Shown: in pieces, positions 41 through 59,131 of the stretch
Layout of the letters: each line of letters begins with the position of its first letter
Position numbering within the stretch: position 1 is the stretch's first letter
NCBI GenBank assembly: GCA_045648885.1
Contig: JAZROV010000002.1
Span: 94,628-158,627, forward strand
Source of the DNA: Candidatus Enterousia sp.
GTDB taxonomy: Bacteria; Pseudomonadota; Alphaproteobacteria; Rs-D84
Length of the DNA: 64,000 nucleotides
Direction: 5' to 3'
Notes under the pieces: model-generated
Databases searched by the model: none
Seen by the model: only the letters and a program-made list of their open reading frames with translations
Told to the model about the DNA's origin: nothing
Translations under genes and position numbers: made by a program

Positions 41-2365
41 ATGTTTGCAAAATATTATGATGTTGAAACTTTTGATTTTGACCCGTATAAAGATGATATG
101 TCAAAACATTTTTTACCGTTAAAGGGCAAAAAATATGACGTAGTTGTAATTTTTCAGATAATGCCGGAATTAGATAAATTAAAAAAATATATCAAATTCA
201 AACACTGTGCGTTTTTCCCAATGTATGACGGTGTTCCACCACGCGACAATTCGATTTGGTATCAATATAGAAATGTAAATATAATCAATTTTTCAAAAAC
301 TTTACACGATGAATTAAAATTACTAGGTTTTTCATCTTTTTATTTTCAATTTTTTCCAAAGCCCATAGAAATAACAGACCAAGGTGATGAAAAATCTATC
401 TTTTTCTGGCAAAGAATAAATGCGATAAATATCAATACGCTTGAAAAACTGATTGATTTCAAGGGTATTAAACATATTCATTTTCATCACGCAATTGATC
501 CAAAACATACTTTCGTTGAACCGTCAGACAAAATTGCAAAAAAGGCGACACATTCAACATGGTTTGAAACGCGCGAAGATATGCAAAAACAAATGCAGAA
601 ATCTGCTGTTTATATTGCACCACGCGCATTTGAAGGTATCGGAATGTCTTTTTTAGAAGCGATGTCGATGGGGCGTTGTGTGATTGCACCAAACAATCCG
701 ACGATGAATGAATATATTGTGAACGGTGAAAATGGAATATTGTATGATTTAAATAACCCCATGCCGATTGATTTGTCTGATATTCGCGGTATTCAAAAAC
801 GTACTGAAAAATTCATCAAAGATGGATACGAAAAATGGGAATCAGAAAAGTGGAAAATTATAGATGTTTTGACACACAAGCCTGTCATAAATAAATCAAA
901 ATTAAATAACAAATATCTACAAAAACCAGACTTTGATAACCTTTATAATTTATTTGGAATATTGCCGATTATGCGCATAGTTGGACATAATTGGCACAAA
1001 GCATATAAATTATTTGGTTTTTTACCATTTTTGTTGATCAAAGGTAATGATTTTAGACGCCGTGTATATGTTTTTGGTTTGCCTGTTTTAAGAATAAAAG
1101 GTAATAAACCAGAAATAAAACCTGGACCCGTTAATAATATGCCAGCAGAAGTGACTATGAATTTGCAGAAAACACCAAACCCGAAAGGGCGTGTTTTGAT
1201 GGTTTTTCATATGAATTTTTTACGAAAAGATCAAGGTTGTTCAAATTATATATATGAAACCGCGATGTTGTTGAAAAAAATGGGCTATGCAATTGATTTT
1301 TTCTCAGCAGATTTGTTTAGTTTTAATGCATTTGGTGATTTGGCAGAATTAAATAAACGTGAAAAATTAATAGATAATTTTTATTTTGCAAATTATAAAA
1401 ATTCAACCAAATATGAAACGTCGTGGGATGTGCATGCATCTGATATAAACTGGGTTAACGATTTTACCCGCAGATTTTTTGAAAAAATAGTTACACAAAA
1501 TAAATATGATTATATTGATATACATTACATACAATGGGCAAATTTGTTGTTGAATCGTAAAAAGTTATTTCCAGATACTGTTGCTGTGTATCATTGTCAA
1601 GATAGCAATTTTATGCAAAAATTTTTAAACACTGTTGCAGATTTACCAACAACTGCAAATATTGTAGCAAATGCGTTTGCAAGTGAATATAAATCGTATG
1701 GTTTATTTGATAAATTTATGTGTATTTCATATGATGAAATGTTGTTTTGGCAAAAATTTTTCCAAAACAAAGAATTTTATTTTATGCCACATCCATTGAA
1801 CGCAATAAGATATGATAATAAAAAACATAAAGATATAGATGTATTATTTTTGGCGGCATATAATCCGTATAATTTACATGGTCTGCAATGGTTTGTTGAT
1901 GAGGTTTGTCCGCATTTAAGCAAAAATATAAAGATAACAGTTTGCGGACGTATAGTGCAGTTTTTGAAAACAAATAATCCAGAATATATAGACAAAATGA
2001 AAAATTTAGGTTTTAATTTAATTGATTATGCTAATAATTTGGAAGATTTGTATTCTAAAACAAAGATAGCAATGGTGCCTTTGTATGAAGGGACTGGTAT
2101 GAAAATTAAAACCATAGAGGCCATGTCACATAATATACCAATTGTGTCCAGAAGTGCCGGTGTTGATGGTTTTCCAGATAAAACAAATAATGGAATTTTA
2201 GTAACCGATGATCCACATCAGTTTGCAAAGTATTTGGAAAAATTGTACACAGATAAAAAGTTTTATAACAATATCAAAGATCGAGAATACGAATATTTTC
2301 AAACGCATTTTTCTAAAACAAATGTGCAAGATTTGATGAAACGTGTATTTGTTGTTAATAAATGA
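41..2365 (+). CDS. two-domain glycosyltransferase (GT-B/GT4-like N- and C-terminal domains) with central basic-hydrophobic repeats
   Basis: 774-aa ORF. N-terminal domain has EGIGMSFLEAMSMGRCVIAPN and the C-terminal domain has EGTGMKIKTIEAMSHNIPIV, both matching the GT4 E-x7-E-type nucleotide-sugar binding signature. The central region carries three LFGxLPxxxIKG repeats. Confidence 0.6.
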   Translation: MFAKYYDVETFDFDPYKDDMSKHFLPLKGKKYDVVVIFQIMPELDKLKKYIKFKHCAFFPMYDGVPPRDNSIWYQYRNVNIINFSKTLHDELKLLGFSSFYFQFFPKPIEITDQGDEKSIFFWQRINAININTLEKLIDFKGIKHIHFHHAIDPKHTFVEPSDKIAKKATHSTWFETREDMQKQMQKSAVYIAPRAFEGIGMSFLEAMSMGRCVIAPNNPTMNEYIVNGENGILYDLNNPMPIDLSDIRGIQKRTEKFIKDGYEKWESEKWKIIDVLTHKPVINKSKLNNKYLQKPDFDNLYNLFGILPIMRIVGHNWHKAYKLFGFLPFLLIKGNDFRRRVYVFGLPVLRIKGNKPEIKPGPVNNMPAEVTMNLQKTPNPKGRVLMVFHMNFLRKDQGCSNYIYETAMLLKKMGYAIDFFSADLFSFNAFGDLAELNKREKLIDNFYFANYKNSTKYETSWDVHASDINWVNDFTRRFFEKIVTQNKYDYIDIHYIQWANLLLNRKKLFPDTVAVYHCQDSNFMQKFLNTVADLPTTANIVANAFASEYKSYGLFDKFMCISYDEMLFWQKFFQNKEFYFMPHPLNAIRYDNKKHKDIDVLFLAAYNPYNLHGLQWFVDEVCPHLSKNIKITVCGRIVQFLKTNNPEYIDKMKNLGFNLIDYANNLEDLYSKTKIAMVPLYEGTGMKIKTIEAMSHNIPIVSRSAGVDGFPDKTNNGILVTDDPHQFAKYLEKLYTDKKFYNNIKDREYEYFQTHFSKTNVQDLMKRVFVVNK

Positions 2366-5300
2366 AAGAGAATAAAATGAAAAAACAATTAAACATATTG
2401 ATTGATGGACGCACTTTAAAATGGGGCTTATCTAAGGGTACGCGTAACGGTATTTTTTTCGTAACAAAAAATGTTTTTCAAGAATTAACGCAAAGAAACA
2501 ATGTAAACATACACATGTTTTTACCATGTGAAGATGCAAATTTATCAGATCAATTGATTAGTTTAATAGGTGCAAAATCTATGTCTGTTGTGACAGATCG
2601 AGATGATATGTCATCAATAGATGCATTTTTATCGCCATTGGAAAAAATACCGGATTGTGTGAAACAATATCCAAATATTTCGAATTATACAATATTATAT
2701 GATGTGACTCCGTTGATTTTTCCAATGTATTTTAAATCTGGGTCTACAGGTTGGTTTGAACAATTGGTGGCTTCATTAAATTTACAAGATTTCTATTTTT
2801 CAATTTCTGATTATACTAAATCTGATTTTTTAAGGTATTGTCCAAATTTAGATAGTGATAAAATTACAACAATACCTTTGTCGACAAATTTACCATATAA
2901 ACCAAATACAAAAGCAAAACAATTAGCGGCTGTGTGCAAAAAATATAATATACCAACCGACAAAAAATATCTTTTTTCCCTTTGTTCGCTGGAACCACGT
3001 AAAAATTTAATTCGTGCTGTAAAAACATTTTTGGATTTTATAAAAAAAAATAAAATCAATGATTTGGTTTATGTCTTGGGCGGTGGTGCGTGGAGCGGTT
3101 TTGTTGAAAAATTAGAAAAGGAAGTTCCAGATTATCAAAAATATTCTGATAAAATTATTCGTGCAGGCTATGTTGATGATGCTGATTTGGAAATTTTATA
3201 TTCCAACGCGTTGTGGTTTGTTTATACTTCGCAATACGAAGGTTTCGGTATGCCGCCATTAGAGGCAATGTCTTGCGGATGTCCTGTGATTACATCAAAT
3301 AATACCAGTTTGCCAGAAGTTGTTGGTGGGGCGGGTCAAATGATAGATTGGGACAGTGACGAACAACATGTTGCATCGTATGAAAAATATTATTTTGATG
3401 AAAAATATCGTAAATCAATGGCGAAAAAAGGGTTGGCACGTTCTAAAAAATTTTCATGGAAATCTGCCGTTGATATTATTTTAAATAAAATGAATGAAAT
3501 TGAAAAACGCAAATCAAACAAACCATTGGTGACTGTGGTCACAGGCTCTTTTAACCTGATTAAAAACGGTCGGCAGGAAACGTTTGCGCAAACAATAGAA
3601 TCTGTTCAAAAACAGACATATAAAAATATTGAACATATTGTGATTGACGGGGCTTCGACCGATGGCACAATCGATTTGTTAAAAGAATATGAAAAAAAAG
3701 GCCTTATTAAATACTATTCTGAACCAGACAAGGGTATTTATGATGCTATGAACAAAGGTATTTTAAAGGCCAAAGGAAAATATGTAGTTTGTTTGAACAG
3801 TGATGATTTTTATTCTGATGAACATGCGATTGAATGGTTAGTGAAAAAAGCAGAAGAACAAAATGCAGATGCTGTTTATGCTGATGCTGTGCGTGTTAAC
3901 CCAAAAACTTTGGCGGTTATAAATGTATGGCCAGGAAAAGGAAATTTCCAACCATGGAAACCGCAATTCCCGTGTCATCAAACATTTTTAATTAAAACAG
4001 ACGTAATGAAAGAATTAGGATTGTATAAATTAAAATACAAAGTGTGTGCGGATAATGCTTTTTTTTGTCGTTTGGAACAACATAATAAAAAAATTGCCGT
4101 GTTGGATAGAAAAATTATAACTTTTCGCGATGGTGGTTTTTCAAATGATAATATGGCTGTTGTAGAACAAGATAAAAAAGAGCTTTTGTTTGAAGAGTTG
4201 GGGCAATATCATAATTTAACAAAAGACGATTGTTCAAATTTGATTTTAAACAGATTTTGTTCTTTGCCTATTGATGATGCTATTAAATTAGGTGCTAAAC
4301 TTGAAAAATCAGAATGGGTTAAACAATATTTTAATATTTTATCTGATTATCATTTGCGCAATATACGTGTTCCAGATAAAACAGAAATAAATTGTGTTTT
4401 TAATTTATTTGATGTTTTTCGGTTATTTAAATATGAACAAACCAAAGATTTCGTGCGTTTAAAAATATTTGGTATCACAGTGTTTAAAATCAGAAAAACA
4501 TTATATTTTCAAAAATATTATTTGTTTGGGTTGCCTATTTTTAAAATAAATAATTTAACCCAGAAAAGAAATATACTGCAAAATATAATGTTTAAATTTG
4601 CAAATAAACAAAAAATATTCAAAAGAAATAAATTTTTATTGGTTGATAATACATTTAATAATACTGCCGAATTGACCGATAGTTTTGCTTTGTTTGAATA
4701 TTTACAGGCACATCCAAAATATAAAGATAAAAGTTATTATATTATAAACAAATTAAACGCACAATTTGACGAGATTGCAAAAAAATATCCGAACAATATT
4801 ATTCCGGTTGAACATGGTCGTTTAAATTGGTGTTTGCTTTGGAAAATGGTACGTGCAAAATATTGGATTGATTCATTCCAGGTTATTGGTTCTTTTGATC
4901 CAGATGGCGAGATTTGTAATGGACAAATCACAACTGTTTATGCACAACATGGTATCAATTATCTTAAACTGGGTTTTTTGGGTGATATGTCAATCAGTCC
5001 AAAATATTTTAATAAAATAATTTTCAGCAATGAAACAGAACGCGATTTATTCAAAAACTATTATGGCTATGACGATAAAAATACAATTATTGCGGGCTTG
5101 TCTCGTTGGGATTTAATGAAAGAGAAATCTGAAGAAAAAATAATTTTTGTGTTCTTTACTTTCCGAGATTATTTAAGAAAATTATCGGGAGATGCGATTG
5201 CTAAGACACGGTATTATGAAAATGTTTGCAGATTGTTAAATTCAAAAAAATTAAATGATTTGCTGAAAAAACATAACGTAAAATTATATGCAGCAGTTCA

Positions 5301-6189
5301 TCACGAAATGATAAATAATAAAACAATAAAAAATACTTTGTCGCATATCAATTTTATCGCAGATAAAGATATTGGTGAAATCAAACAAAAAGCGTCTATG
5401 TTGATTACTGATTTTTCCAGCATGTGTTTCGATTTTATGATAAAAGATAAACCTGTTGTTTTCTTCCACATAGATGCAGGTGATGAACTTTGTAAATTAT
5501 CGCCAGATAGTTATGAAAATGATTTAAATGTCGAATCTAAAAATGACGAACTTTATAATGTCTTTTACGATGTTGATGGTGTTTTAAATTCGATTGAATA
5601 TTATTTAAAACATAATTTTGAATTGGAAAAAGATAAAAAAGATAAACATTCAAAATTTTTCGCATATCAGCAAGATATTCGTCAACATATTATTGATGGT
5701 TTATTAAAATCGCCAGATAATATCTATAATGATGTTTTTCAATATGATTTATCTGATTTACCAGCGCTGCAATATGATACACAAATTATTTTCAATAATG
5801 ATATGCCTATGCATGTATATGGTTTAGCTGGCGCTGAACCATGGGGATGTTGGAGTGTTGATAAAAAATGCGCGATGGCTTTTAAATTACCAAATGAAAG
5901 TGAGGTTGTTTTGAAATTTGATTGTTCTGGATATGTCAATGATTTGCATCGAAATTTAATTGTAGATGTGTTTACTAATAATAAACGAAAAACACAATGG
6001 AAATTCAGATATGGCAAAACATTTAATGCACCAGAAATTAAAATTACTAAGCAAGATTGTGACGACAATAATATATGCAAAATCTATTTCGTTGTACGTA
6101 ATGCTAAATCTCCATATAAACTTGGCATCAGTAATGATAAGCGTTCTTTGGGAATCGGATTTAAGTCTTTGATAATTCATAAGTGTTAA
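2362..6189 (+). CDS. multidomain glycopolymer synthase: GT4 + GT2 + TagF-like CDP-glycerol/ribitol phosphotransferase + conserved C-terminal module
   Basis: 1275-aa ORF whose start overlaps the upstream stop by 4 nt (ATGA). GT4 motif EGFGMPPLEAMSCGCPVITSN. GT2 region VTGSFNLIKNGRQETFAQTIESVQKQTYKNIEHIVIDGASTDGT with DxD at CLNSDDF. TagB/TagF-like region ending ITDFSSMCFDFMIKDKPVVFF. C-terminal module PWGCW ... SPYKLGISNDKRSLGIGFKSL. Confidence 0.6.
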   Translation: MKENKMKKQLNILIDGRTLKWGLSKGTRNGIFFVTKNVFQELTQRNNVNIHMFLPCEDANLSDQLISLIGAKSMSVVTDRDDMSSIDAFLSPLEKIPDCVKQYPNISNYTILYDVTPLIFPMYFKSGSTGWFEQLVASLNLQDFYFSISDYTKSDFLRYCPNLDSDKITTIPLSTNLPYKPNTKAKQLAAVCKKYNIPTDKKYLFSLCSLEPRKNLIRAVKTFLDFIKKNKINDLVYVLGGGAWSGFVEKLEKEVPDYQKYSDKIIRAGYVDDADLEILYSNALWFVYTSQYEGFGMPPLEAMSCGCPVITSNNTSLPEVVGGAGQMIDWDSDEQHVASYEKYYFDEKYRKSMAKKGLARSKKFSWKSAVDIILNKMNEIEKRKSNKPLVTVVTGSFNLIKNGRQETFAQTIESVQKQTYKNIEHIVIDGASTDGTIDLLKEYEKKGLIKYYSEPDKGIYDAMNKGILKAKGKYVVCLNSDDFYSDEHAIEWLVKKAEEQNADAVYADAVRVNPKTLAVINVWPGKGNFQPWKPQFPCHQTFLIKTDVMKELGLYKLKYKVCADNAFFCRLEQHNKKIAVLDRKIITFRDGGFSNDNMAVVEQDKKELLFEELGQYHNLTKDDCSNLILNRFCSLPIDDAIKLGAKLEKSEWVKQYFNILSDYHLRNIRVPDKTEINCVFNLFDVFRLFKYEQTKDFVRLKIFGITVFKIRKTLYFQKYYLFGLPIFKINNLTQKRNILQNIMFKFANKQKIFKRNKFLLVDNTFNNTAELTDSFALFEYLQAHPKYKDKSYYIINKLNAQFDEIAKKYPNNIIPVEHGRLNWCLLWKMVRAKYWIDSFQVIGSFDPDGEICNGQITTVYAQHGINYLKLGFLGDMSISPKYFNKIIFSNETERDLFKNYYGYDDKNTIIAGLSRWDLMKEKSEEKIIFVFFTFRDYLRKLSGDAIAKTRYYENVCRLLNSKKLNDLLKKHNVKLYAAVHHEMINNKTIKNTLSHINFIADKDIGEIKQKASMLITDFSSMCFDFMIKDKPVVFFHIDAGDELCKLSPDSYENDLNVESKNDELYNVFYDVDGVLNSIEYYLKHNFELEKDKKDKHSKFFAYQQDIRQHIIDGLLKSPDNIYNDVFQYDLSDLPALQYDTQIIFNNDMPMHVYGLAGAEPWGCWSVDKKCAMAFKLPNESEVVLKFDCSGYVNDLHRNLIVDVFTNNKRKTQWKFRYGKTFNAPEIKITKQDCDDNNICKIYFVVRNAKSPYKLGISNDKRSLGIGFKSLIIHKC

Positions 6190-6210: not shown

Positions 6211-7176
6211 ATGAAAAAACAAACAAACAATTTAAGTAAAAAAACTGAGCATGTTGAAAATGTTCTGTATTTAGCGAATCAGAACGAAATTGAAAAGTTT
6301 TTTTCTGAATATGGTCAATATCATGGGCTTAGTCGGTATGATATCAACAGATTGGTTAACAATAATTTTCTTGGAATTCCATTAAATGAAGCTATTGAGT
6401 TGGGTGCAAAATTGGAACGGCCAGAATGGAAACAAGAATATTTTGATATTTTATTAAATAATCATATCTATTCAAAAAAACAAAATTTTTCAGTTATTGG
6501 TAATAGTATGCCTTTTGTGAAAAAATATTATTTGTTTGATTTATTGCTGTTGATGAAAACGAAGTTGAAATATGGTATTAAACGTTATTTGTTATTTGGC
6601 TTTTTGCCTTTGATTCGTATCAGGTATCAAGACAATAAATTAAAAGATATTTTATTGTTGTCTGTGATACCGTTTTTTTCCAATACATATGATAGTATTC
6701 GTTTGTTCGGTATACCGGTGTTTTTTAAACAAAAACTGAACGAAACTTATATTCCGATTAAACCGGGCTTTTACAGCACTGCTAGGATGTTAAAGTTTGT
6801 CTTGAAAGGGATGTTTGCTTGTGAAGCATGGGGTGCGTGGTCGCGTGGTGATTCGACATCTTTTTTATTAAAAACCGATGATAAATATATTGCAGAATTT
6901 GATGTGAAACCTTTTTGGGCCAAAGGTAAAGAAAAACAAATCGTGACAGTTTATCTGAATGGTCACAGAAAAAATAAATATGTTTTTGAAGCAGGACAAA
7001 AAATTCCAAAAATCAGTCTTGTTTTGCCTAAATCAGAAAGATTGCACATAATGTTTAAATATACAGATGTAAAATCACCAAAGGATTTAGGGTTATCTGC
7101 AGATGGACGCAAAATCACGATAGGGTTTAAATCGTTAGAAGTAAAAAATATCATGGACGAGAAACATAAATGTTAA
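6211..7176 (+). CDS. paralogous accessory protein sharing a linker region and the C-terminal module with the upstream polymerase
   Basis: 321 aa. The N-terminal segment (GQYHGLSRYDINRLV...AIELGAKLERPEWKQEYFDIL) aligns with residues about 620-690 of the 1275-aa protein. The C-terminus EAWGAWS...SPKDLGLSADGRKITIGFKSLEV is the conserved module. It carries LLFGFLPLIRIRY and IRLFGIPVFFKQK repeats. Confidence 0.5.
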   Translation: MKKQTNNLSKKTEHVENVLYLANQNEIEKFFSEYGQYHGLSRYDINRLVNNNFLGIPLNEAIELGAKLERPEWKQEYFDILLNNHIYSKKQNFSVIGNSMPFVKKYYLFDLLLLMKTKLKYGIKRYLLFGFLPLIRIRYQDNKLKDILLLSVIPFFSNTYDSIRLFGIPVFFKQKLNETYIPIKPGFYSTARMLKFVLKGMFACEAWGAWSRGDSTSFLLKTDDKYIAEFDVKPFWAKGKEKQIVTVYLNGHRKNKYVFEAGQKIPKISLVLPKSERLHIMFKYTDVKSPKDLGLSADGRKITIGFKSLEVKNIMDEKHKC

Positions 7177-8807
7177 AAAAACAAGAAACGCCATATTGTA
7201 AAAAATATTTTTTATTTGGAAAATGTATTTGGCAACACCGAAAGCCAATTAAAGAAATAGCAGAATATTTATTATCTGTGGTTTCAGATTCAATAAAATC
7301 TGAAATTGATAAATCAAATGCGGCTTTGCGGATGCTGTCTGATGCGATAGATAAAAAATTTTCAATTTTGAATGAATCTGATATTAAAAATGCAAATCAA
7401 ATTGATAAAATAAATTCAAATTTAAAAAAATATACTTTGAATACGCAAACGGATAATTTAAACCGCGCTGTTCAATTGTTGTCTGAAACTGTTGATGCAC
7501 GCTTTGATGTTTTGCAATCTGATGTTAAAGATTATATTAAAAATATATATGAAAAAGTCAGATATTTTAAAATATGCGACAATAAATTATTAATTGATGG
7601 TTTATACAACATAGAAGATTGGGGTGGATGGATAAATGAAACATGTAATATCTATTTGCGGTTTGATAAAAGTATAAAAAATGACGTTGATATTCAAATT
7701 GATATTTCTAGATTTAATACCAAATCAGAACAAGATCTAATTGTATTTATCAATGATGAGTTTTATCAAAAATTTGTAAATGTGTCTGGAAAGATTTTGG
7801 TACAAATACCATATCAAGATTTGATAAAACATGATTATAAAATTATTTTATCTTTTGTTGCCCCAAACCAAATTTCACCATTTGAATTAGGTGTTGGTAA
7901 TGATACTAGAAAATTAAGTTATGGTATTATCAGTATTGAATCAAATGCAGATGTCATATTGTCTGGGTTTGATTCAAAAAGTTTTTATGATTTCAATAAA
8001 TACACAACTTGTTTTATGCAAAATGAATGGTTGCAGTATATCTCAGAAGATTTAAATAATAACAAATTGCAAAATTTATATTGTGGTTTATCCAAAGACA
8101 GTGTTGATATATTGAATCTTTTAATGTATCGCAGACAAAATGAATATAAATTTTCTGGAATGGAATTATATCAAAAACATTTAGCGTGGACTAATGATGT
8201 TTCAAAATATAAAATTGTGAACAAAATTGGTTTTCAACCAGAAGTGTTCTTTTTCAAAAATGGTTTAAAATTTATTGACGATAAAATTATAGAAAGACAT
8301 TTATCAAATGGATGTATCATAGACGGTGGTGCCTGTAGTGGTGATTCTGCGTTGATGTTCGCTGAATATGATTTTGTTAAAAAAATTTATGCGTTTGAAC
8401 CAGTTAAAAATACATTTGCCGATATGGCAGAAACATTGACAATAAATAATTGTTCAAAAGCCGAAGCAATAAATGAGGGTTTGGGCGATAAAAACGGAAT
8501 TACAGAAATTATGGGTGAAAAATGTAAAGTCACAACATTGGATAATTTTGCAAAAAATAAAACTATATCATGTATAAAGTTAGACGTAGAAGGTATGGAA
8601 TATAAAGTAATTCAAGGGGCCTTAGAAACAATTAAACGTGATAAACCGTTGTTGTTGATTTGTATATATCATACACCAAAAGATTTTTTTGAAATAAAAC
8701 CGCTTATTGAATCTTTAAATTTAGGTTATAAATTCAAAGTTGTTGATACAGAACCGTGTAATTATGCGGTTGGTATTCATGCAATGTTGATTGGGTATAC
8801 GGAGTAA
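7170..8807 (+). CDS. coiled-coil / conserved-module / FkbM-family methyltransferase fusion protein
   Basis: 545 aa. The central DWGGWI...SPFELGVGNDTRKLSYGIISIES is the conserved module. The C-terminus IIDGGACSGDSALMFAEY...AFEP matches the FkbM/SAM-dependent methyltransferase signature. Start overlaps the previous stop. Confidence 0.55.
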   Translation: MLKKQETPYCKKYFLFGKCIWQHRKPIKEIAEYLLSVVSDSIKSEIDKSNAALRMLSDAIDKKFSILNESDIKNANQIDKINSNLKKYTLNTQTDNLNRAVQLLSETVDARFDVLQSDVKDYIKNIYEKVRYFKICDNKLLIDGLYNIEDWGGWINETCNIYLRFDKSIKNDVDIQIDISRFNTKSEQDLIVFINDEFYQKFVNVSGKILVQIPYQDLIKHDYKIILSFVAPNQISPFELGVGNDTRKLSYGIISIESNADVILSGFDSKSFYDFNKYTTCFMQNEWLQYISEDLNNNKLQNLYCGLSKDSVDILNLLMYRRQNEYKFSGMELYQKHLAWTNDVSKYKIVNKIGFQPEVFFFKNGLKFIDDKIIERHLSNGCIIDGGACSGDSALMFAEYDFVKKIYAFEPVKNTFADMAETLTINNCSKAEAINEGLGDKNGITEIMGEKCKVTTLDNFAKNKTISCIKLDVEGMEYKVIQGALETIKRDKPLLLICIYHTPKDFFEIKPLIESLNLGYKFKVVDTEPCNYAVGIHAMLIGYTE

Positions 8808-9063
8808 AAAATGGCAAAAAAACGAATATGTGTTATCGAAAGATGATAATCAAAAATATATTATTAAAAATATAGAAAAAGAATTTTTGAATGATTGGGT
8901 TACACCAATATTGCCGAGTGTCGAAAAAAAGTTAAAACTAGAAATAACAGATAGTTGGTACAATACAAAATATACAATTGATTTTATAAAAGCGACATAT
9001 GCTTATTATGACAAACATCCAGAATTGGTAAGTTTAAATAAACACATTGTTGATAATATTTAA
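8791..9063 (+). CDS. hypothetical small protein
   Basis: 90-aa ORF overlapping the end of the upstream gene by 17 nt. No recognisable motif. Confidence 0.2.
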   Translation: MGIRSKKWQKNEYVLSKDDNQKYIIKNIEKEFLNDWVTPILPSVEKKLKLEITDSWYNTKYTIDFIKATYAYYDKHPELVSLNKHIVDNI

Positions 9064-9068
9064 AAATT

Positions 9069-9100
9069 TTGTTTATTTTTTAACCAATTTGTGATATAAT
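9069..9100 (+). promoter_or_regulatory. candidate sigma70 promoter with extended -10 (TGaTATAAT) upstream of the tail-fibre-like gene
   Basis: tgtgatataat at 9090-9100, followed by a strong Shine-Dalgarno AAGGAG 7 nt before the ATG at 9188. Confidence 0.35.
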
Positions 9101-9187
9101 ACCAAACATAGGCGGTGATTTGTATCATCGCTGTTTTTTTGTGCCTGGTTTTTTATCAGGCGTTTTTTTATTATTTAAGGAGAAATA

Positions 9188-10378
9188 ATGTCTAGACAAA
9201 TACAAATCCGGCGCGGCAGTGCCGCTGAACACGATAATTTTACCGGTGCAATTGGCGAAATTACTATGGATACAACAAACAAAACTCTGCGTGTACATGA
9301 TGGGGTTACGGTTGGGGGTAATGAAATTATGTCAATGGATAAATTTTATTCAAATATAACGAATTGTATTACATGTATTCCACAAGATATAAATTTAAAA
9401 TTATCTGATGGGACATTGACTTTAAAGGCTGGTAGTAAATGTTATCTGAAAACAGACACAACTACACCAAGTATTGCTGTTTCATCTGATTTAACAACTA
9501 CACAAACAACGAATGGTAGTTATTTTGTGTTTTATGATGGAACTGGTTTGACGACAGCTTTGACTAATACGTATGATTATTCTAGTTTGCCAGATACATA
9601 TTCATTGCCTTTGGCGATAGTGACTGTTTCAGGAAATACTATATCGTCCATTGATCAAATATTTAATGGTTTTGGGTTTATTGGTGCTAAGGTTTTTGTT
9701 TTACCTGGTGTCAAAGGGTTGGCTCCAAATGGAAAAAATTCAGATGGAACTTTGAAAAATACAACTATTTCTATATCATCTGTAAAAATATCAGATACAT
9801 ATAATTCAAAATATGTTATGAATTCAGACGGTATAGTTCCTGCCAGTTATACAACGTATGTTGAACAGGACACCAAACCAAGTTTTTCTAATGGTGATTG
9901 GTATAATCCAGACGAAAATATTATGTATCAAATAGTCAATGGGGTTGCCATACCAAAGGTTAGATTATACGCGTTCGATGTTTTTGCAGCTGGCAGTGGT
10001 GTTCAACCGGCTATAGGAATAAAACTAAAACAAACATTTCATTCGTTAAGTTATGGTGACAAAGGTGTTGTTGCAGGTTGGAGTATGCCATCAGGTAAAA
10101 AAATATCTTTGACATTAGGGGCGTCGGATTCAACATACAAAGCACCAGCAAATGGTTGGTTTTATTTAGAAGCAATTGTTCCAACTAATGGGTATGCAGT
10201 TCGACTTGTTGCAACAGATGGGACTGCAAAGAAATCCCAAGTTCGTTCTGGTGCAAATAACCAATATTGTATTGTTCCATTATATCCCACATATGCTGGT
10301 GAAATAGTTCAGGTTCACTATGATGGAACTTTATCAAGCGTATCATTTTTATTTATTTATGCGCAAGGCGAAAAATAG
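9188..10378 (+). CDS. phage tail-fibre-like protein (conserved tail-fibre N-terminal motif)
   Basis: N-terminus IQIRRGSAAEHDNFTGAIGEITMDTTNKTLRVHDGVTVGG matches the RRGxAAxW...GEIGxETDTxKxKIGDGVT motif shared by phage tail fibre and hyaluronidase-type proteins. The remainder is Thr/Ser/Gly-rich and beta-rich. Confidence 0.5.
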   Translation: MSRQIQIRRGSAAEHDNFTGAIGEITMDTTNKTLRVHDGVTVGGNEIMSMDKFYSNITNCITCIPQDINLKLSDGTLTLKAGSKCYLKTDTTTPSIAVSSDLTTTQTTNGSYFVFYDGTGLTTALTNTYDYSSLPDTYSLPLAIVTVSGNTISSIDQIFNGFGFIGAKVFVLPGVKGLAPNGKNSDGTLKNTTISISSVKISDTYNSKYVMNSDGIVPASYTTYVEQDTKPSFSNGDWYNPDENIMYQIVNGVAIPKVRLYAFDVFAAGSGVQPAIGIKLKQTFHSLSYGDKGVVAGWSMPSGKKISLTLGASDSTYKAPANGWFYLEAIVPTNGYAVRLVATDGTAKKSQVRSGANNQYCIVPLYPTYAGEIVQVHYDGTLSSVSFLFIYAQGEK

Positions 10379-10387
10379 GAGAATAGA

Positions 10388-10735
10388 ATGTTTAAAGCAA
10401 TAAAAGATAATAAAATTATAGCAATCAGCGATACCGATTCAGAGTTTTTATGTATTGTGAAAGATACTGTGGAAGCAGATGATACCTGTGTTTGTGAAGA
10501 TTTTGGGCAATATAATGGTGAATATTTATTAAAATCCAAAATCCCAATTCCGACAAAAGAAGAACAAAGAGAAAAACGTGCGATGGCATATCGTGATGAA
10601 ATAGATCCAATAACTGCGCATATATCTCGGCTGCGTGATGAAGAACAATCAGAAGAAATTATTTCGGAAATATCAGATTTAATTTTAGAACGCGCACAAA
10701 AGGTTGCAGAAATAAAACAAACCTATCCGTATTAA
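10388..10735 (+). CDS. hypothetical acidic protein, possible tail-fibre assembly chaperone
   Basis: 115-aa ORF 10 nt downstream of the tail-fibre-like gene. The call rests on position only; a rho-independent terminator follows. Confidence 0.25.
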   Translation: MFKAIKDNKIIAISDTDSEFLCIVKDTVEADDTCVCEDFGQYNGEYLLKSKIPIPTKEEQREKRAMAYRDEIDPITAHISRLRDEEQSEEIISEISDLILERAQKVAEIKQTYPY

Positions 10736-10743
10736 AAATTTTT

Positions 10744-10776
10744 AACTGCATACGTTTGGCGTATGCAGTTTTTTTA
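10744..10776 (+). terminator. rho-independent terminator
   Basis: ctgcatacgtttggcgtatgcag hairpin followed by a T-run. Confidence 0.6.
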
Positions 10777-10832: not shown

Positions 10833-11903
10833 TTGGATAATGTAATTATGAAAAAAAAGTTATTATTTCTTGTTTTGGGGTTCATATTCGTTTTGACGAT
10901 ACTGTTATTTTTTGTGTTTGTCGAAACAAAACAAGCTGGTCCAGAAGATTTAATCATATATTTTAATAAAAATGGGAATATATCTGAATATAAAACAACA
11001 GGTTTTTCACATCCGGAAACAGACAGAACGTGGACCGATGGGCGAACAGCATCTATTGTTGTTCCATATAATAAAGTTCAAGATTATTTTGTGCGTGCCA
11101 CGTTTGATATCAACCCATTTTTGACTAAGAAAATAAAAAAACAAACTGTTAATGTTTTGGTAAACGATAAATTTGTAACAAAGTGGAATATTAGTAAGGC
11201 CGGAACTTATGCATTTGATTTGCCTGTTGATTTTGAAACAGATGATAATAAGATGACTATTAAATTTGAAATTCCTGATGCAAAAAGCCCTAAAGAATTA
11301 AAACTATCGTCTGATGCCCGTAAATTAGGCTTGGGAATGAAAAGATTAGTTTTATCGCAAGTTAGTCAAGAAAATCCGAATAATTACAAACATTATCATA
11401 TTGGCGACAGAATATATTTTAATGCTGGTGGAAATTCCAAACTTTATACTGGCACTGGTTGGTCATCGCAAGAAAAAGATTTTACTTGGACCGATGGAAA
11501 TGATGCTTATTTGAATTTATTTATAGAAGATGCGTTGGATAAAAAATTACAACTGAATATTTTTGGATACGGAATTTTTGAACAATCAGATGAATGTCAA
11601 AAGGTAACAGTATATGCAAATAATTCAGAATTAACAACATGGTGTTTGTCATGCCAAGACGATAATTATGCGGTTGAAATACCAGAAACAGTAATTGGTT
11701 ATGGAGCGGTTCAAATTAGATTACATATAGAAAAACCATTCGTTGCAAAACCAGATCCCAGACATTTAGGAGCGGCTGTGAAAAATGTTTATATTTCACA
11801 AGTGTTTGCAGCAAAAACAAAAGTTAAAATAGCGCGTTGGATAAAAAATAAAGTTTTGAAATCGTCTGATGCTAAGCCATCGCCCGATGCACCGATTGAA
11901 TGA
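10833..11903 (+). CDS. membrane-anchored protein with two tandem copies of the conserved C-terminal module
   Basis: N-terminal TM helix LLFLVLGFIFVLTILLFFVFV. Copy 1 is TDRTWTDGRTAS...SPKELKLSSDARKLGLGMKRLVLSQV. Copy 2 is KDFTWTDGNDAY...DPRHLGAAVKNVYISQV. Confidence 0.5.
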   Translation: MDNVIMKKKLLFLVLGFIFVLTILLFFVFVETKQAGPEDLIIYFNKNGNISEYKTTGFSHPETDRTWTDGRTASIVVPYNKVQDYFVRATFDINPFLTKKIKKQTVNVLVNDKFVTKWNISKAGTYAFDLPVDFETDDNKMTIKFEIPDAKSPKELKLSSDARKLGLGMKRLVLSQVSQENPNNYKHYHIGDRIYFNAGGNSKLYTGTGWSSQEKDFTWTDGNDAYLNLFIEDALDKKLQLNIFGYGIFEQSDECQKVTVYANNSELTTWCLSCQDDNYAVEIPETVIGYGAVQIRLHIEKPFVAKPDPRHLGAAVKNVYISQVFAAKTKVKIARWIKNKVLKSSDAKPSPDAPIE

Positions 11904-12126: not shown

Positions 12127-12486
12127 ATGTTTTATGGGGGTATAGATATGTCCGGAAAGGGTGGTTATATTACAGATACAGATAAAACCATCGGAAAACG
12201 TATTAAATTGCGCAGAATCATGCTTCGAATGACACAATCTGATTTGGCACAGATGTGTGGCATTTCTTTTCAGCAAATACAAAAATATGAATCTGGGGTG
12301 AATCGAATATCTTGTTCGCGATTGTTCAAAATAAGTCATGTATTAAATGTTCCAATTGAATTTTTCTTTGATAACATAAATGAAATGTACAGAACAGAAA
12401 CGCTGGAATTAATCGTTTTGTATTGGGCTTTGTCGAAAGATATCAGAAAAAATCTTGTTTTAAATGTAATTAAACAGTTCAGGTAA
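12127..12486 (+). CDS. XRE-family helix-turn-helix transcriptional regulator
   Basis: IGKRIKLRRIMLRMTQSDLAQMCGISFQQIQKYESGVNRIS is a classic HTH_3 (Cro/CI) signature. The true start may be the internal Met at 12148. Confidence 0.6.
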   Translation: MFYGGIDMSGKGGYITDTDKTIGKRIKLRRIMLRMTQSDLAQMCGISFQQIQKYESGVNRISCSRLFKISHVLNVPIEFFFDNINEMYRTETLELIVLYWALSKDIRKNLVLNVIKQFR

Positions 12487-12488
12487 TC

Positions 12489-12505
12489 TTGCGGGAGATG
12501 GATTT
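12489..12505. repeat. 17-bp direct duplication of the tRNA-fMet 3' end (att-like scar)
   Basis: ttgcgggagatggattt is identical at 12489-12505 and 12672-12688, the latter inside the tRNA. Confidence 0.6.
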
Positions 12506-12668: not shown

Positions 12669-12745
<77 letters not shown>

Positions 12746-26365: not shown

Positions 26366-26440
26366 GGCGGCGTAGCTCAGTGGTAGAGCAGAGGAATCAT
26401 AATCCTTTGGTCAGGGGTCCGAATCCCTTCGCCGCTACCA
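26366..26440 (+). tRNA. tRNA-Met (anticodon CAT; elongator Met or Ile2-type)
   Basis: GGCGGCGTAGCTCAGTGGTAGAGCAGAGGAATCATAATCCTTTGGTCAGGGGTCCGAATCCCTTCGCCGCTACCA folds as a cloverleaf with a 7-bp acceptor stem (G1-U72 wobble) and CAT in the anticodon loop. Confidence 0.8.
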
Positions 26441-26479
26441 AAATTCAAACCGGGTTTATCCCGGTTTTAATTTTGGTAT
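26396..26479. repeat. 84-bp direct repeat, copy A (3' half of tRNA-Met plus 39 bp downstream)
   Basis: Matches 29174-29257 with 2 mismatches. Confidence 0.7.
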
Positions 26480-26750
26480 TGGGATTTGGAGCACGATGAA
26501 GGGGTTCGACCCGCAGCAAAAAGGCGGGATAACGCCAGTTTGCCGTCAGGCAAATTTTGCAAGGGAGTGAAGCGCAGCGAAACAATCCCGAGCCGCATAG
26601 TATCAAAACCAAAAAACATGAATTTTGTTAAAACTGTCCAATCTTTACATAATTCTACACATCGACTATACGGCGGTTTACACGGTGTATATGTTGTAAA
26701 TTAGACAGTTTTATGATATAATGCCGAAAAGAAAAACAAAGGTTTTTATA

Positions 26751-27275
26751 ATGATTTATTACAATGAAAACGATATTTTAATCAGAGATTTGGTTGAATC
26801 TGATGCCGAAGTAATATCCCACGAAGAACATTTACAAGGGTTGCTAGACAAACAACCAGCTAGATATTTTCGTAGATTGAAAGACGTAGCAGACGGGAAA
26901 TGTGTTTCCTTGGTTGCTGAATACAAAGGTAATCCTGCTGGTTATATCAATGTCTATTTTGATTCACAATGGGGTGCATTTGCTGGTAAAGGTTGGCCAG
27001 AAATTATTGATATGAGAGTGCTGGAGAAATATCAAAAAAATGGTGTTGGTAATATGTTAATGAATATTGCAGAAGATATATCGAAAAAATATTCTGATAC
27101 TGTTTATTTGGGTGTTGGTGTAAATAGTAATTATGGTTCTGCATTCAGAATGTATGTTAAACACGGATTTGTCCCAGACGGTACTGGTTTGTGGAGAAAT
27201 GATGAACATTTAGAAAATTATACAGATATAAAATATGACGACGACGTTATTATTTATATGTCAAAGAAATTCTAA
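26751..27275 (+). CDS. GNAT-family N-acetyltransferase
   Basis: Motif A QKNGVGNMLMNIAE. The ATG at 26721 falls inside a TGaTATAAT -10 element, so 26751 (MIYYNE) is the likelier start. Confidence 0.55.
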   Translation: MIYYNENDILIRDLVESDAEVISHEEHLQGLLDKQPARYFRRLKDVADGKCVSLVAEYKGNPAGYINVYFDSQWGAFAGKGWPEIIDMRVLEKYQKNGVGNMLMNIAEDISKKYSDTVYLGVGVNSNYGSAFRMYVKHGFVPDGTGLWRNDEHLENYTDIKYDDDVIIYMSKKF

Positions 27276-28144
27276 TGGGTTTGAATATGAATGATTATTT
27301 AGCAATTATCAAAGAAACATTTCCTGAATTAAATATTCAAGATTTTTCTATTCTGGGAAAAGGTAATTTGGCTGCAACTTGTTTGGTTAATAAAAACATT
27401 GTTTTTAAAATTACAGGTTCAAGTGAAAAAGCCCTTAAAGATACAGAACACGAAATATACCTTTTGAAACTGATAAACCACAATCTGTCATTTAATATCC
27501 CTAAAATTCTTTATGACGGTAAAATAAACAATGGTGGTTGGGTGTTTGGTGAAAGTTTGTTGCCAGGAATCACTTATTCAAAAAAATTACACGACAGTTT
27601 TGACAAAAACACCCAGGTAGATATTCTAAGACAAATTGGCAAAGTTATGCACAAATTACATTCTATCAAAGTCAATGACGACAAGAAATTGTTGTTTGTG
27701 GGTGATTATAAACAAAATATTGCTATGTTTAACAAATACTTTTCTGACGAAGTTAAACAATGTTTCAGCCAATCAGATATTGAACGAATAAATACTGTTC
27801 GTGAAAGATATGAATATCTCTCTATTCATTATCCTATTGAATTGGTTTTGGTGCACGCTGATATGCATTTTGGTAATTTTATGTTTGATACAGAACACAA
27901 AAAGATTACTGGTTTAATAGATTTTGGTGCAGCACATTTCTCAGAACCAGCACGTGATATGCATTATTACTATGGCGAAGATATAAAACATATTTTGGAG
28001 GGTTATGGTGAAACTAAAGATATTTATTTACCAGAACGTCAGAAATTCCATTCCGTAACAAACTTTCTGGAAAATATAGGTGGATATATACAAGAAAACC
28101 TATCACCAGATAATGAAATACAAAAATTGTTAAGTATTCTATAA
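27275..28144 (+). CDS. APH-family phosphotransferase (aminoglycoside/antibiotic kinase-like fold)
   Basis: Brenner motif VHADMHFGNFMF and IDFGAAHFSEPARDMHY. The start overlaps the GNAT stop (TAATG). Confidence 0.6.
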   Translation: MGLNMNDYLAIIKETFPELNIQDFSILGKGNLAATCLVNKNIVFKITGSSEKALKDTEHEIYLLKLINHNLSFNIPKILYDGKINNGGWVFGESLLPGITYSKKLHDSFDKNTQVDILRQIGKVMHKLHSIKVNDDKKLLFVGDYKQNIAMFNKYFSDEVKQCFSQSDIERINTVRERYEYLSIHYPIELVLVHADMHFGNFMFDTEHKKITGLIDFGAAHFSEPARDMHYYYGEDIKHILEGYGETKDIYLPERQKFHSVTNFLENIGGYIQENLSPDNEIQKLLSIL

Positions 28145-28146
28145 AA

Positions 28147-28176
28147 CAAAAAACCGGTCGAACGACCGGTTTTGTA
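28147..28176. terminator. bidirectional terminator hairpin
   Basis: aaaaccggtcgaacgaccggtttt between convergent genes. Confidence 0.55.
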
Positions 28177-28183
28177 TTTCGTA

Positions 28184-28507
28184 TTATACTTCCCAAGATT
28201 TGGTTTGGTATGTATTGATCGTCCCATCAGCAGAAACAGATGTTTTCCATTTTGGATAATCGTCACATTTAGAACGATTATTTTCCCACTGTAATGGTAC
28301 CAAGTTGATAATATCATCTGTACCACCTTTTGATACCGGTTTTTGATGATCTATTTCCCAACCATATTGAGATTCACAATTACCGTATTCTGATTTTTTG
28401 ATCCAAGCACCAGCATAGTCTTTGCGCCAAACATCAGCTTGTTCAGTGTTTACTATCTTTGCTTTCTTCCAAACATCATCAACAGTTTTTTCTTCAAAAT
28501 ATGCCAT
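28184..28507 (-). CDS. HNH endonuclease
   Basis: WEIDHQKPVSKGGTDDIINLVPLQWENNRSK is an HNH motif. Confidence 0.55.
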   Translation of the reverse strand: MAYFEEKTVDDVWKKAKIVNTEQADVWRKDYAGAWIKKSEYGNCESQYGWEIDHQKPVSKGGTDDIINLVPLQWENNRSKCDDYPKWKTSVSADGTINTYQTKSWEV

Positions 28508-29173
28508 TTTTTACTCCTTGAGTTATGGCATCGGAAAAAACTTATTACAAATCTTATTTTTTTATGATACACTCATAAGCAAGTCGATATGTAGTCGGTT
28601 TTTTCCGATTATTTATTTTTCCACCGATTTTCATGGCAGTGAATTTCGGTGGGACTTTCAAAATCAACATGTGGACCATATTGATTTATCAAACACAATA
28701 TATAGTATTTCCGGTTTATTAACAATATGTAAAATGTGAAAAAATATCATTTTATACTTGCATTTTTGTAAAGCCCGATAACAGCGCTTTGTAGGCACCG
28801 ATTCGCTGCAGAAATCAGCAGTTTTTTTGTACAAAATACTCTGAAGTGTGGGATTTTTAAACAATTTTTGTTAAAAATAATTATTTTTGCCCGGAAAACC
28901 GATTCGTTTTATTGAATTTTTGGGTTCTTTTATGCAAATTATAGACATAAAAATCTCGTAATTCTAGTTTGGTGTTATTTGTGTTTAAAATCAAAATAAA
29001 ATCCATAATTACAGTTTCGGTTTAATGTGCGATGGGGTATGATAAAACTATAAACGCATAGTGTCTTTTTGTATGCATGGTTCTACATATTGACTACACG
29101 GGAAATTTTGGCGTGGCAGAAAATCGGCCACAACCCGCATAAATGCGTGTTATTCGGTTTTGTGTGTCAAAAC

Positions 29174-29257
29174 ATCATAATCCTTTGGTCAGGGGTCCGA
29201 ATCCCTTCGCCGCTACCAAAATTTAGACCGGGTTTATCCCGGTTTTAATTTTGGTAT
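29174..29257. repeat. 84-bp direct repeat, copy B (partial tRNA-Met 3' half plus flank); attR-like
   Basis: See copy A. It lacks the 5' half of the tRNA. Confidence 0.7.
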
Positions 29258-46498: not shown

Positions 46499-46593
46499 CT
46501 TTTGATACGAATTGTATCATAATTTTATTTGTATTTGAAACTAAAACCGCCTTGGTGGATTCGAACGGAGCAAACACTTGGAAATCTAAAGAA

Positions 46594-46725
46594 AAACCGC
46601 ACTTTTTAAGTTCGGTGTATCTTTTGGTGGGAGTGGGTGGATTGGCTCGGTCAAAGACCTGCACCGCATTCGTTAGCGCTCAAACTGCGTTTACACTTGT
46701 TTTCGCTTACTCATAGACGAACCAA
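46594..46725. repeat. ~130-bp direct repeat, copy 1, containing a tRNA-Tyr 3'-end fragment (tggtgggagtgggtggatt)
   Basis: Near-identical to 47816-47947. Confidence 0.7.
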
Positions 46726-46808
46726 ATGAACTTCGTTTATATGGCCGAATACCATAAACCACATCACAGCAAAAACAAAAACCAACCGCAAGGGTTGGTT
46801 TGTGCTTT

Positions 46809-46904
46809 TGGTGGGATACCGCTTGCATTAATCGAGCAAAAAACAAACAACTATTCACCGATTTGATGCAACGGGTAAAAGAATTTAAAGAAAAATGGTT
46901 ATGA
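46809..46904 (+). pseudogene. second P4-type integrase C-terminal fragment abutting an att-like core
   Basis: ...WWDTACINRAKNKQLFTDLMQRVKEFKEKWL*. The att-like core ttttggtggga precedes it. Confidence 0.35.
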
Positions 46905-46983
46905 TTTCACCTGTGGGTGAAATTGAAAAAAATAGAAAGGTATGATACAATTATGATAAGAATAATAAAAAAGGTGATGTTTA

Positions 46984-47748: not shown

Positions 47749-47815
47749 TCAGTAAAAATTAGTTGTTTTCAAAAACGCCATTATCGAACTCGTAAAATTA
47801 TTAGAAATCCAACAA

Positions 47816-47947
47816 AAAACCGCACTTTTTAAGTTCGGTGTATCTTTTGGTGGGAGTGGGTGGATTGGCTCGGTCAAAGACCTGCACCGCATTCGTTAGC
47901 GCTCAAACTGCGTTTACACTTGTTTTCGCTTACTCATAGTCGAACCA
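47816..47947. repeat. ~130-bp direct repeat, copy 2, containing a tRNA-Tyr 3'-end fragment
   Basis: See 46594-46725. Confidence 0.7.
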
Positions 47948-48030
47948 AACAAACTGCGTTTGTATGGTCTAATACCACAAACCACGACCGACAAAATAAA
48001 AAATGCACCCGTTGGGTGCATTTTTTGTTT

Positions 48031-57460: not shown

Positions 57461-57490
57461 AAGATTTGGTTTTTATAAAAGGATGAAAAG

Positions 57491-59071: not shown

Positions 59072-59131
59072 TTTGATTTTGCGCCTGGGGGTATTTTTCC
59101 CCCAGACGCAATTTAAAAAAAGGTTTGTATT

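Follow-up and report, generated by a model that had tools for sequence, protein, structure and literature searches.

Results

Features of the locus

The stretch of DNA analysed here (the window) comprises 64,000 nucleotides of a Candidatus Enterousia sp. genome (assembly GCA_045648885.1, contig JAZROV010000002.1, positions 94,628 to 158,627 of the forward strand). Inside its surface-polysaccharide locus, a two-gene unit, hereafter the cassette, was found on the (+) strand at approximately 9069–10776, in which a promoter-like site was followed by a tail-fibre gene, a small open reading frame (ORF) and a terminator. The features assigned were the following:

9069–9100, + strand: predicted promoter-like element, with the extended −10 TGATATAAT at 9092–9100 and a T-rich, weak −35 (TTTATT, 9072–9077) at 17-nt spacing
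9111–9140, + strand: predicted leader terminator 1, 9-bp stem (9111–9119 with 9124–9132) and T-run at 9134–9140
9141–9169, + strand: predicted leader terminator 2, 7-bp stem (9143–9149 with 9155–9161) and T-run at 9163–9169
9177–9182, + strand: ribosome-binding site (RBS) AAGGAG, 5 nt before the ATG, with invariant G columns in the leader alignment
9188–10378, + strand: fibre (receptor-binding protein) gene, 396 aa, assigned from an Mtd_N match, its homologues and a structure model
10388–10735, + strand: gene of a 115-aa acidic protein, putative tip-specific fibre assembly chaperone, assigned from its position and its co-variation with the fibre tip
10744–10776, + strand: predicted intrinsic terminator closing the unit, 12-bp hairpin with a loop of 3 and a T-run

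The small ORF started 9 nt past the fibre stop codon and had its own AGGAG. The combination of promoter and tandem terminators occurred once in the 64 kb, both strands counted, and 10 terminator-like sites were counted in the 4-kb region, compared to 1.9 expected. No head, tail, portal or terminase family appeared among the 20 PHROG families matched (E ≤ 1e−8) by 48 other ORFs of at least 80 aa between 12.8 and 64 kb. Moreover, among the window genes, only the fibre and the small ORF had homologues in 66 IMG/VR loci; all comparison loci used in this work were metagenome-assembled genomes (MAGs) or metagenome contigs, and some of the ‘viral’ IMG/VR contigs included host DNA. Both results agree with the first-pass annotation, made from the sequence alone, in that no other phage structural genes lie in the window. 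That annotation had also proposed a promoter and a terminator proper to the unit, to which the predicted signals correspond; the tandem terminators of the leader were absent from it.

A phage-derived fibre and its partner protein

The fibre protein begins with MSRQIQIRRGSAAEHDNF..., and its residues 5–41 matched the Pfam family Mtd_N (PF18454) above the gathering threshold (E = 5.8e−15, 55 bits vs. a cut-off of 26.3 bits), which confirmed the tail-fibre-type N-terminus first read from the sequence; PHROG 9648 (‘tail protein’) was matched as well. A total of 512 relatives with strongly conserved motifs were found. Four parts were distinguished in the protein, namely the Mtd_N adaptor (approximately residues 1–48), a conserved proximal domain (approximately 55–200) with the motifs NCITxIPQDI, GTLTLKAGSK and FNGFGxIG, a variable domain (approximately 200–290) and a C-terminal jelly-roll tip (approximately 292–396). 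The structure predicted with AlphaFold2 (mean predicted local distance difference test, pLDDT, of 87.8) showed jelly-roll, C1q/TNF-like and carbohydrate-binding-module (CBM)-like domains, and the tip of the model resembled C1q/TNF-like tips, including that of the Bdellovibrio fibre Bd2133.

Fibre homologues occupied the tail-fibre slot in phage genomes. In the IMG/VR contig L013, the homologue came after the major head, tail tubular A/B and internal virion protein genes, which is the fibre slot of a T7-type podophage, and this slot was also filled by homologues in the temperate phage L137 (integrase, holin) and in the 37-kb podophage L139, with a small-ORF homologue following the fibre homologue in L013, L137 and L139 alike. 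In particular, the 807-aa fibre of L137, which had only the last ~100 residues in common with the window fibre, was followed by a small ORF 72% identical to that of the window. Among the annotated GenBank phages of INPHARED, matches to the fibre were limited to its first 60 residues, and the small ORF found none. Overall, the family match, the homologues and the model showed the window gene to be DNA of a phage-derived, trimeric-type tail fibre with a predicted receptor-binding role.

Neither a beta-helix nor an enzyme fold (glycanase or lyase) was present in the fibre model, and a depolymerase or tailspike identity, the former offered as an alternative by the first-pass annotation, was not supported on this ground. 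A target of a diversity-generating retroelement was rejected, as no repeat touched 9188–10378 and no reverse transcriptase was found among the window ORFs scanned; the cassette differs from Mtd of Bordetella phage BPP-1 in that it lacks a reverse transcriptase, a template/variable repeat pair and a C-type lectin variable domain. Furthermore, no signal peptide and no membrane anchor were found in the fibre sequence, and lysis or transport on a particle would therefore be the only ways out of the cell for a fibre without a signal peptide.

The product of the small ORF has 115 aa and an isoelectric point of 4.6, in keeping with the small acidic ORF that had been described in the position of a tail-fibre assembly protein. 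It had 535 relatives, many of them on contigs of 30–50 kb, and in more than 25 loci, phages included, the small ORF always lay directly downstream of the fibre. The type of partner tracked the type of fibre C-terminus, YA[QE]G tails being accompanied by MFKA-type partners (9:0) and YANG tails by MFGI-type partners (9:2; Fisher P = 3e−4). The protein had no match in Pfam, where the curated chaperone families Caudo_TAP and Phage_tail_APC were not matched, and it had weak matches only to PHROG families of unknown function; two positional analogues of the small ORF matched Phage_tail_APC (PF16778) at 2.8e−14. The model of the 115-aa protein (pLDDT of 91) combined a small beta domain with a helical hairpin, a fold that is uninformative. 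As the window protein matches no curated chaperone family and its fold does not tell, we infer from position and co-variation that it acts as a tip-specific fibre assembly chaperone.

Chromosomal residence and selection

The fibre and small-ORF pair was found in surface-polysaccharide loci of Candidatus Enterousia-like Alphaproteobacteria on at least 20 independent contigs. Cassettes lay in polysaccharide loci without phage genes in L001/2, L003/4/75, L005/6, L007 and L008, and the pair was also present in the polysaccharide locus of L134. In L001/2, the synteny was that of the window and the fibre was 73% identical; the fibre of L005/6 was 50% identical. In L007, a fibre of 39% identity was found at the same position beside DUF374-lpxK-lpxC (64–73% identical), and the flanking DUF374, lpxK, lpxC and PilO/T2SSE/T2SSF cluster of the window was 64–85% identical to a Candidatus Enterousia sp. 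MAG (L007 position). The cassette of L003/4/75 occupied a different polysaccharide locus, after ychF, and that of L008 lay between AlgX/MBOAT genes and a giant GT2 gene. In eight further MAG loci, the commonest neighbours were GT2, RgpF, GDP-mannose dehydratase/epimerases, GT1, MBOAT, AlgX, GT9 and PagL, and no phage family appeared among the 25 commonest of the 99 matched neighbour families. The ychF position represented a second syntenic site, at which close relatives held either a 391-aa fibre or a ‘mini-fibre’ of 156–175 aa, all with the same leader. Such mini-fibres (L168 and L170–L174, Joint Genome Institute (JGI) metagenome contigs, some of them at the ychF site) consisted of the conserved adaptor and the C-terminal tip only. 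A JGI contig was 98–99% identical to the window over ~11.7 kb. The sets of glycosyltransferases differed among the cassette-carrying loci.

Compared to L001, the ratio of non-synonymous to synonymous substitution rates (dN/dS) of the fibre gene was 0.21 and that of the small ORF 0.16, with values of 0.24–0.25 for the neighbouring polysaccharide genes. The adaptor was the most constrained part of the fibre (dN of 0.044). In the same comparison, the block including the cassette had a DNA identity of 60–91%, which rose to 94–100% from ~11776 onward, and the flanking XRE gene (12127–12486) had a dS of 0.045. Since the cassette lies inside the divergent block and identity rises past its edge, it travels with the serotype-type locus. 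Genomes of Enterousia (order Rs-D84) are below 1 Mb in size, with a normal coding density and no accumulation of pseudogenes (PMC12306168). Judged by synteny and substitution rates, the cassette was thus shown to be a stable chromosomal resident of a gut alphaproteobacterium with a reduced genome, which is under purifying selection and diverges along with a hypervariable polysaccharide locus. A cryptic prophage would show variable presence and neutral decay, and neither was found, given the synteny in L007 and at the ychF site and the dN/dS values of 0.16–0.21.

A conserved leader with predicted tandem terminators

The same leader, with an extended −10, two terminators and an RBS, preceded every chromosomal copy examined (at least 20 loci), whether the fibre had an Mtd_N adaptor or the T7 gp17-like adaptor described below. 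The motif TTTRTGATATAAT was conserved ~100 nt upstream of every chromosomal fibre gene, and the order was TTTRTGATATAAT, ~10 nt, a hairpin with a U-run, a second hairpin with a U-run and the RBS, the distance between the −10 motif and the ATG being 100–107 nt in 14 of 16 loci. The stems had unrelated sequences across loci and the same architecture. Hairpins were obtained from per-sequence folds and a custom hairpin scan; folding z-scores ranged from −1.6 to −6.7, and for 14 of the 16 leaders none of the shuffled versions reached the stability of the native fold. When the leaders were aligned with MAFFT, RNAalifold returned no pairs, since stems of unrelated sequence do not line up in register, and Rfam gave no match on the leader at E ≤ 1.

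The −10 motif was also found before ordinary genes, there without hairpins; it is therefore the probable strong promoter of this lineage, and the tandem terminators are the special part. In ~2 Mb of loci, promoter and tandem terminators together occurred only before fibre genes, with a single exception in L095 (15978–17132), where the same leader preceded an operon of DuOB (PF22557) and DUF488 beside a C5 cytosine methylase. Upstream of the fibre genes in the phage contigs examined, the leader was absent. Downstream of the two terminators there was no room for a promoter, so transcripts must cross both of them, which would point to either conditional antitermination or a deliberately low output. 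The predicted terminators lie between the promoter and the genes, which is the layout of antitermination-type control.

Two other modes of control were considered and rejected. An ORF spanning the terminators, as expected for a translated leader peptide or ribosome-coupled attenuation, was open in 22 of 25 leaders compared to 11.4 in composition shuffles; reversed and reverse-complemented leaders, which keep the T-runs, had an open frame in 23 and 22 of 25, respectively, so that attenuation was not supported beyond composition. An RfaH-type element was discarded because the ops-like GGCGGTGATTTG in hairpin 1 was not conserved at other loci.

Two further observations concern the sequences around the start codon. 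In leaders of the T7-adaptor type, a near-perfect palindrome, TTGTTATAACAA(AAGGAG), was located between terminator 2 and the RBS in L008, L022, L081, L087, L094 and L095, with variant copies in L088, L099 and L100; it could be an operator, or an RNA hairpin in which the U-tract pairs with the bases directly before the RBS. A search of IMG/VR with the palindrome TTGTTATAACAAAAGGAG of these leaders returned only one cassette-bearing contig and three chance matches. Moreover, the first 20 nt of the fibre gene, ATGTCTAGACAAATACAAAT (9188–9207), were identical in many Mtd_N-type loci though the proteins were only 40–50% identical overall; this suggests that the nucleotide sequence itself is constrained close to the start codon.

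Adaptor lineages and exchange with phages

The chromosomal Mtd_N adaptors (first 48 aa) were 72–93% identical to one another, compared to 39–73% for the whole proteins and to 47–56% between chromosomal and phage adaptors. In other alphaproteobacterial MAGs, the same distal family was found behind a T7 gp17-like adaptor, and these chromosomal T7-type adaptors had a mutual identity of 56–88%, against 31–40% with those of phages, a divergent copy in L125 being 37–46% identical to the other chromosomal ones. No IMG/VR contig with a chromosomal-type adaptor was found, nor any close adaptor in that database. An adaptor that is both constrained and specific to chromosomes argues for a conserved docking partner.

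Mosaic swapping was observed between N-terminal adaptors and distal domains. One case of exchange with a phage involved protein P0244 (711 aa). Its gene lies on the ~37.4-kb podophage contig L139, which was seen in three samples and also has genes for a holin, an HNH protein and a head-tail connector of T7 type. Over its C-terminal 342 aa, P0244 was 90% identical to the chromosomal fibre of Enterousia SGB_6902, and a 720-nt stretch running from mid-gene to just past the stop codon was 98–100% identical at the DNA level between phage L139 and chromosomal L003, with flanks of 65–80%. The G+C content of this patch was 32%, which resembles that of the host locus (29–31%) and not that of the phage (43.7%), and this composition suggests that the patch moved from host to phage. 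No second patch common to phage and chromosome was present in the sample examined. The shared patch indicates that L139-like phages multiply in cassette-bearing cells and that a chromosomal distal domain works as the receptor-binding domain of a phage. Overall, the identities showed the front end (leader and adaptor) to be a conserved, chromosome-specific lineage, and the distal domains and partner gene to vary and to be exchanged with phages.

A contig of 46,956 bp, IMGVR_UViG_3300033463_010496 (L022/L071), contained a leader-bearing fibre with a T7-type adaptor that adjoined chromosomal RgpF-type genes on one side and chaperone, holin, endolysin and replication genes on the other, and a second fibre, of Mtd_N type, stood at the far end after the structural module. 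This order of genes is compatible with the entry of a prophage into a cassette, with homologous recombination taking place inside the fibre gene.

tRNA-linked repeats and other features of the window

An XRE regulator and an att-like tRNA duplication had been reported near the cassette. The XRE gene is real; it was absent from L007 and from the ychF-site loci. A 17-nt direct copy of the 3′ end of tRNA-Met(CAT) (12489–12505 vs. 12672–12688, 183 nt apart; tRNA at 12669–12745, minus strand) is real as well, but the repeat encloses only ~166 bp and lies outside the variable block. The right edge of that block was found near 11776 and not, as first placed, at 12505, and no integrase, att sites or phage genes bounding the block were found. 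In L134, ~3.1 kb with a UbiE-type methyltransferase and a peptidase M55 were inserted at the point of the 17-nt copy, which appears to be a hot spot of integration, independent of the fibre cassette.

Other repeats were found at tRNA genes. The 3′ half of a second tRNA-Met (26366–26440) was repeated directly over 84 nt at 98% identity (29174–29257), and these repeats (26366–29257 in all) flanked a 2.7-kb islet, whose genes encode a GNAT acetyltransferase, an HNH-endonuclease-like protein and an unknown protein of 289 aa. Furthermore, repeats of 228 nt (86% identical) and 56 nt ending in copies of the tRNA-Tyr 3′ end were located at 46561–48049, next to tRNA-Tyr (48031–48117), which suggest two tandem islets of ~1.2 kb. 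At 55880–60712, three paralogues, each encoding 526 aa, followed one another in tandem at a period of 1611/1641 nt; their DNA identity was 65–85%, and they carried an AMP-binding-type TSGSTGxPK motif.

Closer to the cassette, the G+C content was low across the whole block. The 90-aa ORF at 8791–9063 was a C-terminal remnant of wcbI, the 99%-identical JGI contig L134 holding an intact gene of 291 aa, relative to which 615 bp were lost in the window strain. The 356-aa membrane protein following the cassette (10833–11903) was kept in relatives and absent from phages. A DUF7024-like beta-sandwich module with the recurring motif SP.ELG.S.D.R.LG was found in four proteins of the polysaccharide locus (2362–6189, 6211–7176, 7170–8807 and 10833–11903), seemingly twice in the 356-aa protein; in one of the four, an FkbM methyltransferase was preceded by a long N-terminal region of unknown fold.

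Discussion

The reading that we favour, at a probability of roughly 0.5, is that the cassette provides a resident, serotype-linked receptor-binding fibre and its chaperone, which would be expressed under certain conditions only and would equip a phage-like particle in trans. A strong sigma-70 promoter would fire into two tandem intrinsic terminators, so that full-length mRNA would be made either as a trickle or in the presence of a processive antitermination activity, for example that of a phage or phage-like late programme. The small protein would then fold the fibre tip, the distal domains of the fibre would bind the polysaccharide made by the neighbouring genes, and the fibre, by way of its conserved adaptor, would attach in trans to a phage-like particle whose genes lie elsewhere. 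Candidates for this particle would be a defective host particle, one resembling a gene transfer agent (GTA), or a resident or helper phage. Such an arrangement would keep the specificity of the particle genetically linked to the serotype of the cell, as occurs with the head-spike and tail-fibre genes of the Rhodobacter capsulatus GTA (RcGTA).

The RcGTA receptor-binding loci provide the closest precedent for the cassette. The head-spike genes ghsA/ghsB (rcc01079/rcc01080) are located immediately upstream of the capsule genes and are co-regulated with them (PMC5026251), the tail-fibre gene rcc00171 lies downstream of exopolysaccharide genes, and head-spike and tail-fibre proteins both bind the capsule (PMC5026251; PMC10218006). 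Both systems belong to alphaproteobacterial hosts and comprise phage-derived, fast-evolving receptor-binding genes that stand apart from any structural cluster and directly beside the genes for the polysaccharide that they bind or, in the cassette, would bind, and both bear signs of exchange with phages (for RcGTA, PMC5026251; PMC10218006). In contrast to RcGTA, the cassette protein joins Mtd_N to a new, non-homologous distal family and is not a DUF2793 protein, no GTA is known or was detected in Rs-D84 (64 kb of the window genome being covered), and the chaperone gene and the tandem-terminator leader belong to the cassette unit, whereas the RcGTA genes are under quorum sensing and CtrA control. 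As for the leader, terminator-gated phage-like cassettes are controlled by GafZ in Caulobacter, by AlpA in P. aeruginosa (AlpA-alpBCDE) and by lambda Q (PR′-tR′) (PMC11150451). A promoter closely followed by one or more intrinsic terminators ahead of phage-type late genes is common to these systems and is predicted in the cassette, with the difference that the two short hairpins of the cassette start a few nt past the expected transcription start.

Several points weigh against the proposal of a fibre supplied in trans. In the 64 kb of genome covered, no particle to be armed was seen, and no antiterminator gene or loading element was identified; moreover, a GTA cluster would not be expected a priori in a genome of <1 Mb. 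The promoter and the terminators are predictions, and two terminators could simply set a low constitutive level of expression. The exit of the fibre would depend on lysis or on a particle, its binding to the neighbouring polysaccharide is deduced from linkage and from the use of the same domain by phages, and it is not homologous to the RcGTA fibre family, Mtd_N being found and DUF2793 not. Furthermore, the host-to-phage direction of the exchanged patch is suggested by the base composition of one case, and the related loci all come from MAGs or metagenome contigs.

Other explanations were weighed against the same evidence. The cassette may be an anti-phage device, silent until the late programme of an infecting phage reads through the leader. 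Its free fibres, matched to the receptor of the cell itself, would make progeny phages less successful by coating the receptors of sister cells after lysis or by competing in tail assembly. We regard this as rather unlikely. A terminator-gated leader does suit a gene kept off until triggered, the same kind of leader precedes the DuOB-DUF488 operon of L095 in a defence-island-like setting beside the C5 DNA methylase, phages of the same hosts use this type of receptor-binding domain, the attachment of RcGTA particles is blocked when free fibre is added (PMC5026251), and a 1.6-kb device fits a genome of <1 Mb. However, a blocker needs no virion adaptor, and the adaptor is the most constrained part of the fibre and a chromosome-specific lineage; the cassette apparently gave a phage a working receptor-binding domain, which is a cost to the host and not a defence, and the regulatory association comes from a single extra operon.

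Somewhat less probable is a selfish or neutral reservoir of receptor-binding domains, of no benefit to the host, which would be kept by repeated recombination with phages (including integration by homology) and by hitch-hiking with a polysaccharide locus under diversifying selection. The near-identical patch common to phage and chromosome, the mosaic swapping of adaptors and distal domains, and IMGVR_UViG_3300033463_010496, which resembles a prophage fused to a cassette and has a fibre gene at each end, are all in line with this. Yet the two genes evolve under purifying selection, the conserved leader and adaptor are confined to chromosomes, and different species retain the cassette at syntenic sites in genomes without a build-up of pseudogenes (PMC12306168).

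A cell-surface lectin or adhesin of the bacterium itself, comparable to the Bdellovibrio fibre adhesins and attaching to partner cells or host glycans, appears improbable. It would accord with the C1q/TNF-like tip shared with Bd2133, with an organism that is probably dependent on a partner (PMC12306168) and with the type IV pilus-like cluster 5 kb away, but not with a protein that has neither signal peptide nor membrane anchor and that begins with a virion adaptor (Mtd_N here, T7 gp17-like in relatives). In addition, phages use the distal domain to infect the same lineage, and terminator gating would be odd for a housekeeping adhesin.

Orphan pairs of a side tail fibre and its assembly protein (stf/tfa) exist in cryptic prophages of E. 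coli K-12, where they are strain-specific and lie in recognisable prophage remnants with an integrase, an invertase or other phage genes. The cassette resembles them as a fibre and chaperone pair left in a chromosome and able to recombine with incoming phages, and differs in having no phage neighbours and a conserved leader of its own, and in being syntenic across species in polysaccharide loci. A decaying, stf/tfa-like remnant of a seroconverting prophage that also brought glycosyltransferases, as the first-pass annotation had proposed together with the mobility of the block, is very improbable and largely refuted, for despite the phage origin of the genes, the low G+C content of the block and the nearby tRNA-Met repeat and XRE gene, there is no other phage gene in the 64 kb and no integrase or att site at the block, the repeat lies outside it, position is kept in the distant relative L007 in spite of a fibre of 39% identity (DUF374-lpxK-lpxC, 64–73%), dN/dS is 0.16–0.21, the leader is conserved and the glycosyltransferase sets differ between cassette loci. 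The other option of that annotation, a domesticated polysaccharide-binding fibre, comes close to the putative polysaccharide-binding fibre, supplied in trans, that we favour.

More speculatively, and with only a modest chance of being right, the cassette may represent an undescribed class of host-owned receptor-binding cassette in gut Alphaproteobacteria with reduced genomes. A fixed, terminator-gated front end would be combined with an exchangeable distal domain and its chaperone, both following the surface polysaccharide of the cell. The late programme of a phage or phage-like element would set off read-through, and the product would arm a domesticated gene-transfer or killing particle or serve as an anti-phage decoy at the level of the population. 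No paper on orphan or host-encoded tail fibres, nor on GTAs in Rs-D84, was found in the literature.

The shared 720-nt patch offers a concrete example of a phage apparently taking a host-range determinant from a host chromosome, and the leader with its tandem terminators is a candidate, open to testing, for a new alphaproteobacterial antitermination circuit. In a genome of <1 Mb, each retained gene is likely to matter. If the favoured reading is true, the RcGTA principle of placing receptor-binding genes beside receptor-synthesis genes would be extended to an uncultured lineage with genomes of <1 Mb, and it would come with a simple, searchable signature, made up of two terminators behind an extended −10 promoter, followed by a conserved adaptor and by a tip that varies and has its chaperone. 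The cassettes would then be host-encoded markers that pair polysaccharide loci with their cognate receptor-binding domains, and would aid phage-host prediction in gut and rumen metagenomes. With either outcome, particle or decoy, a phage part would have been wired into the serotype locus of its host.

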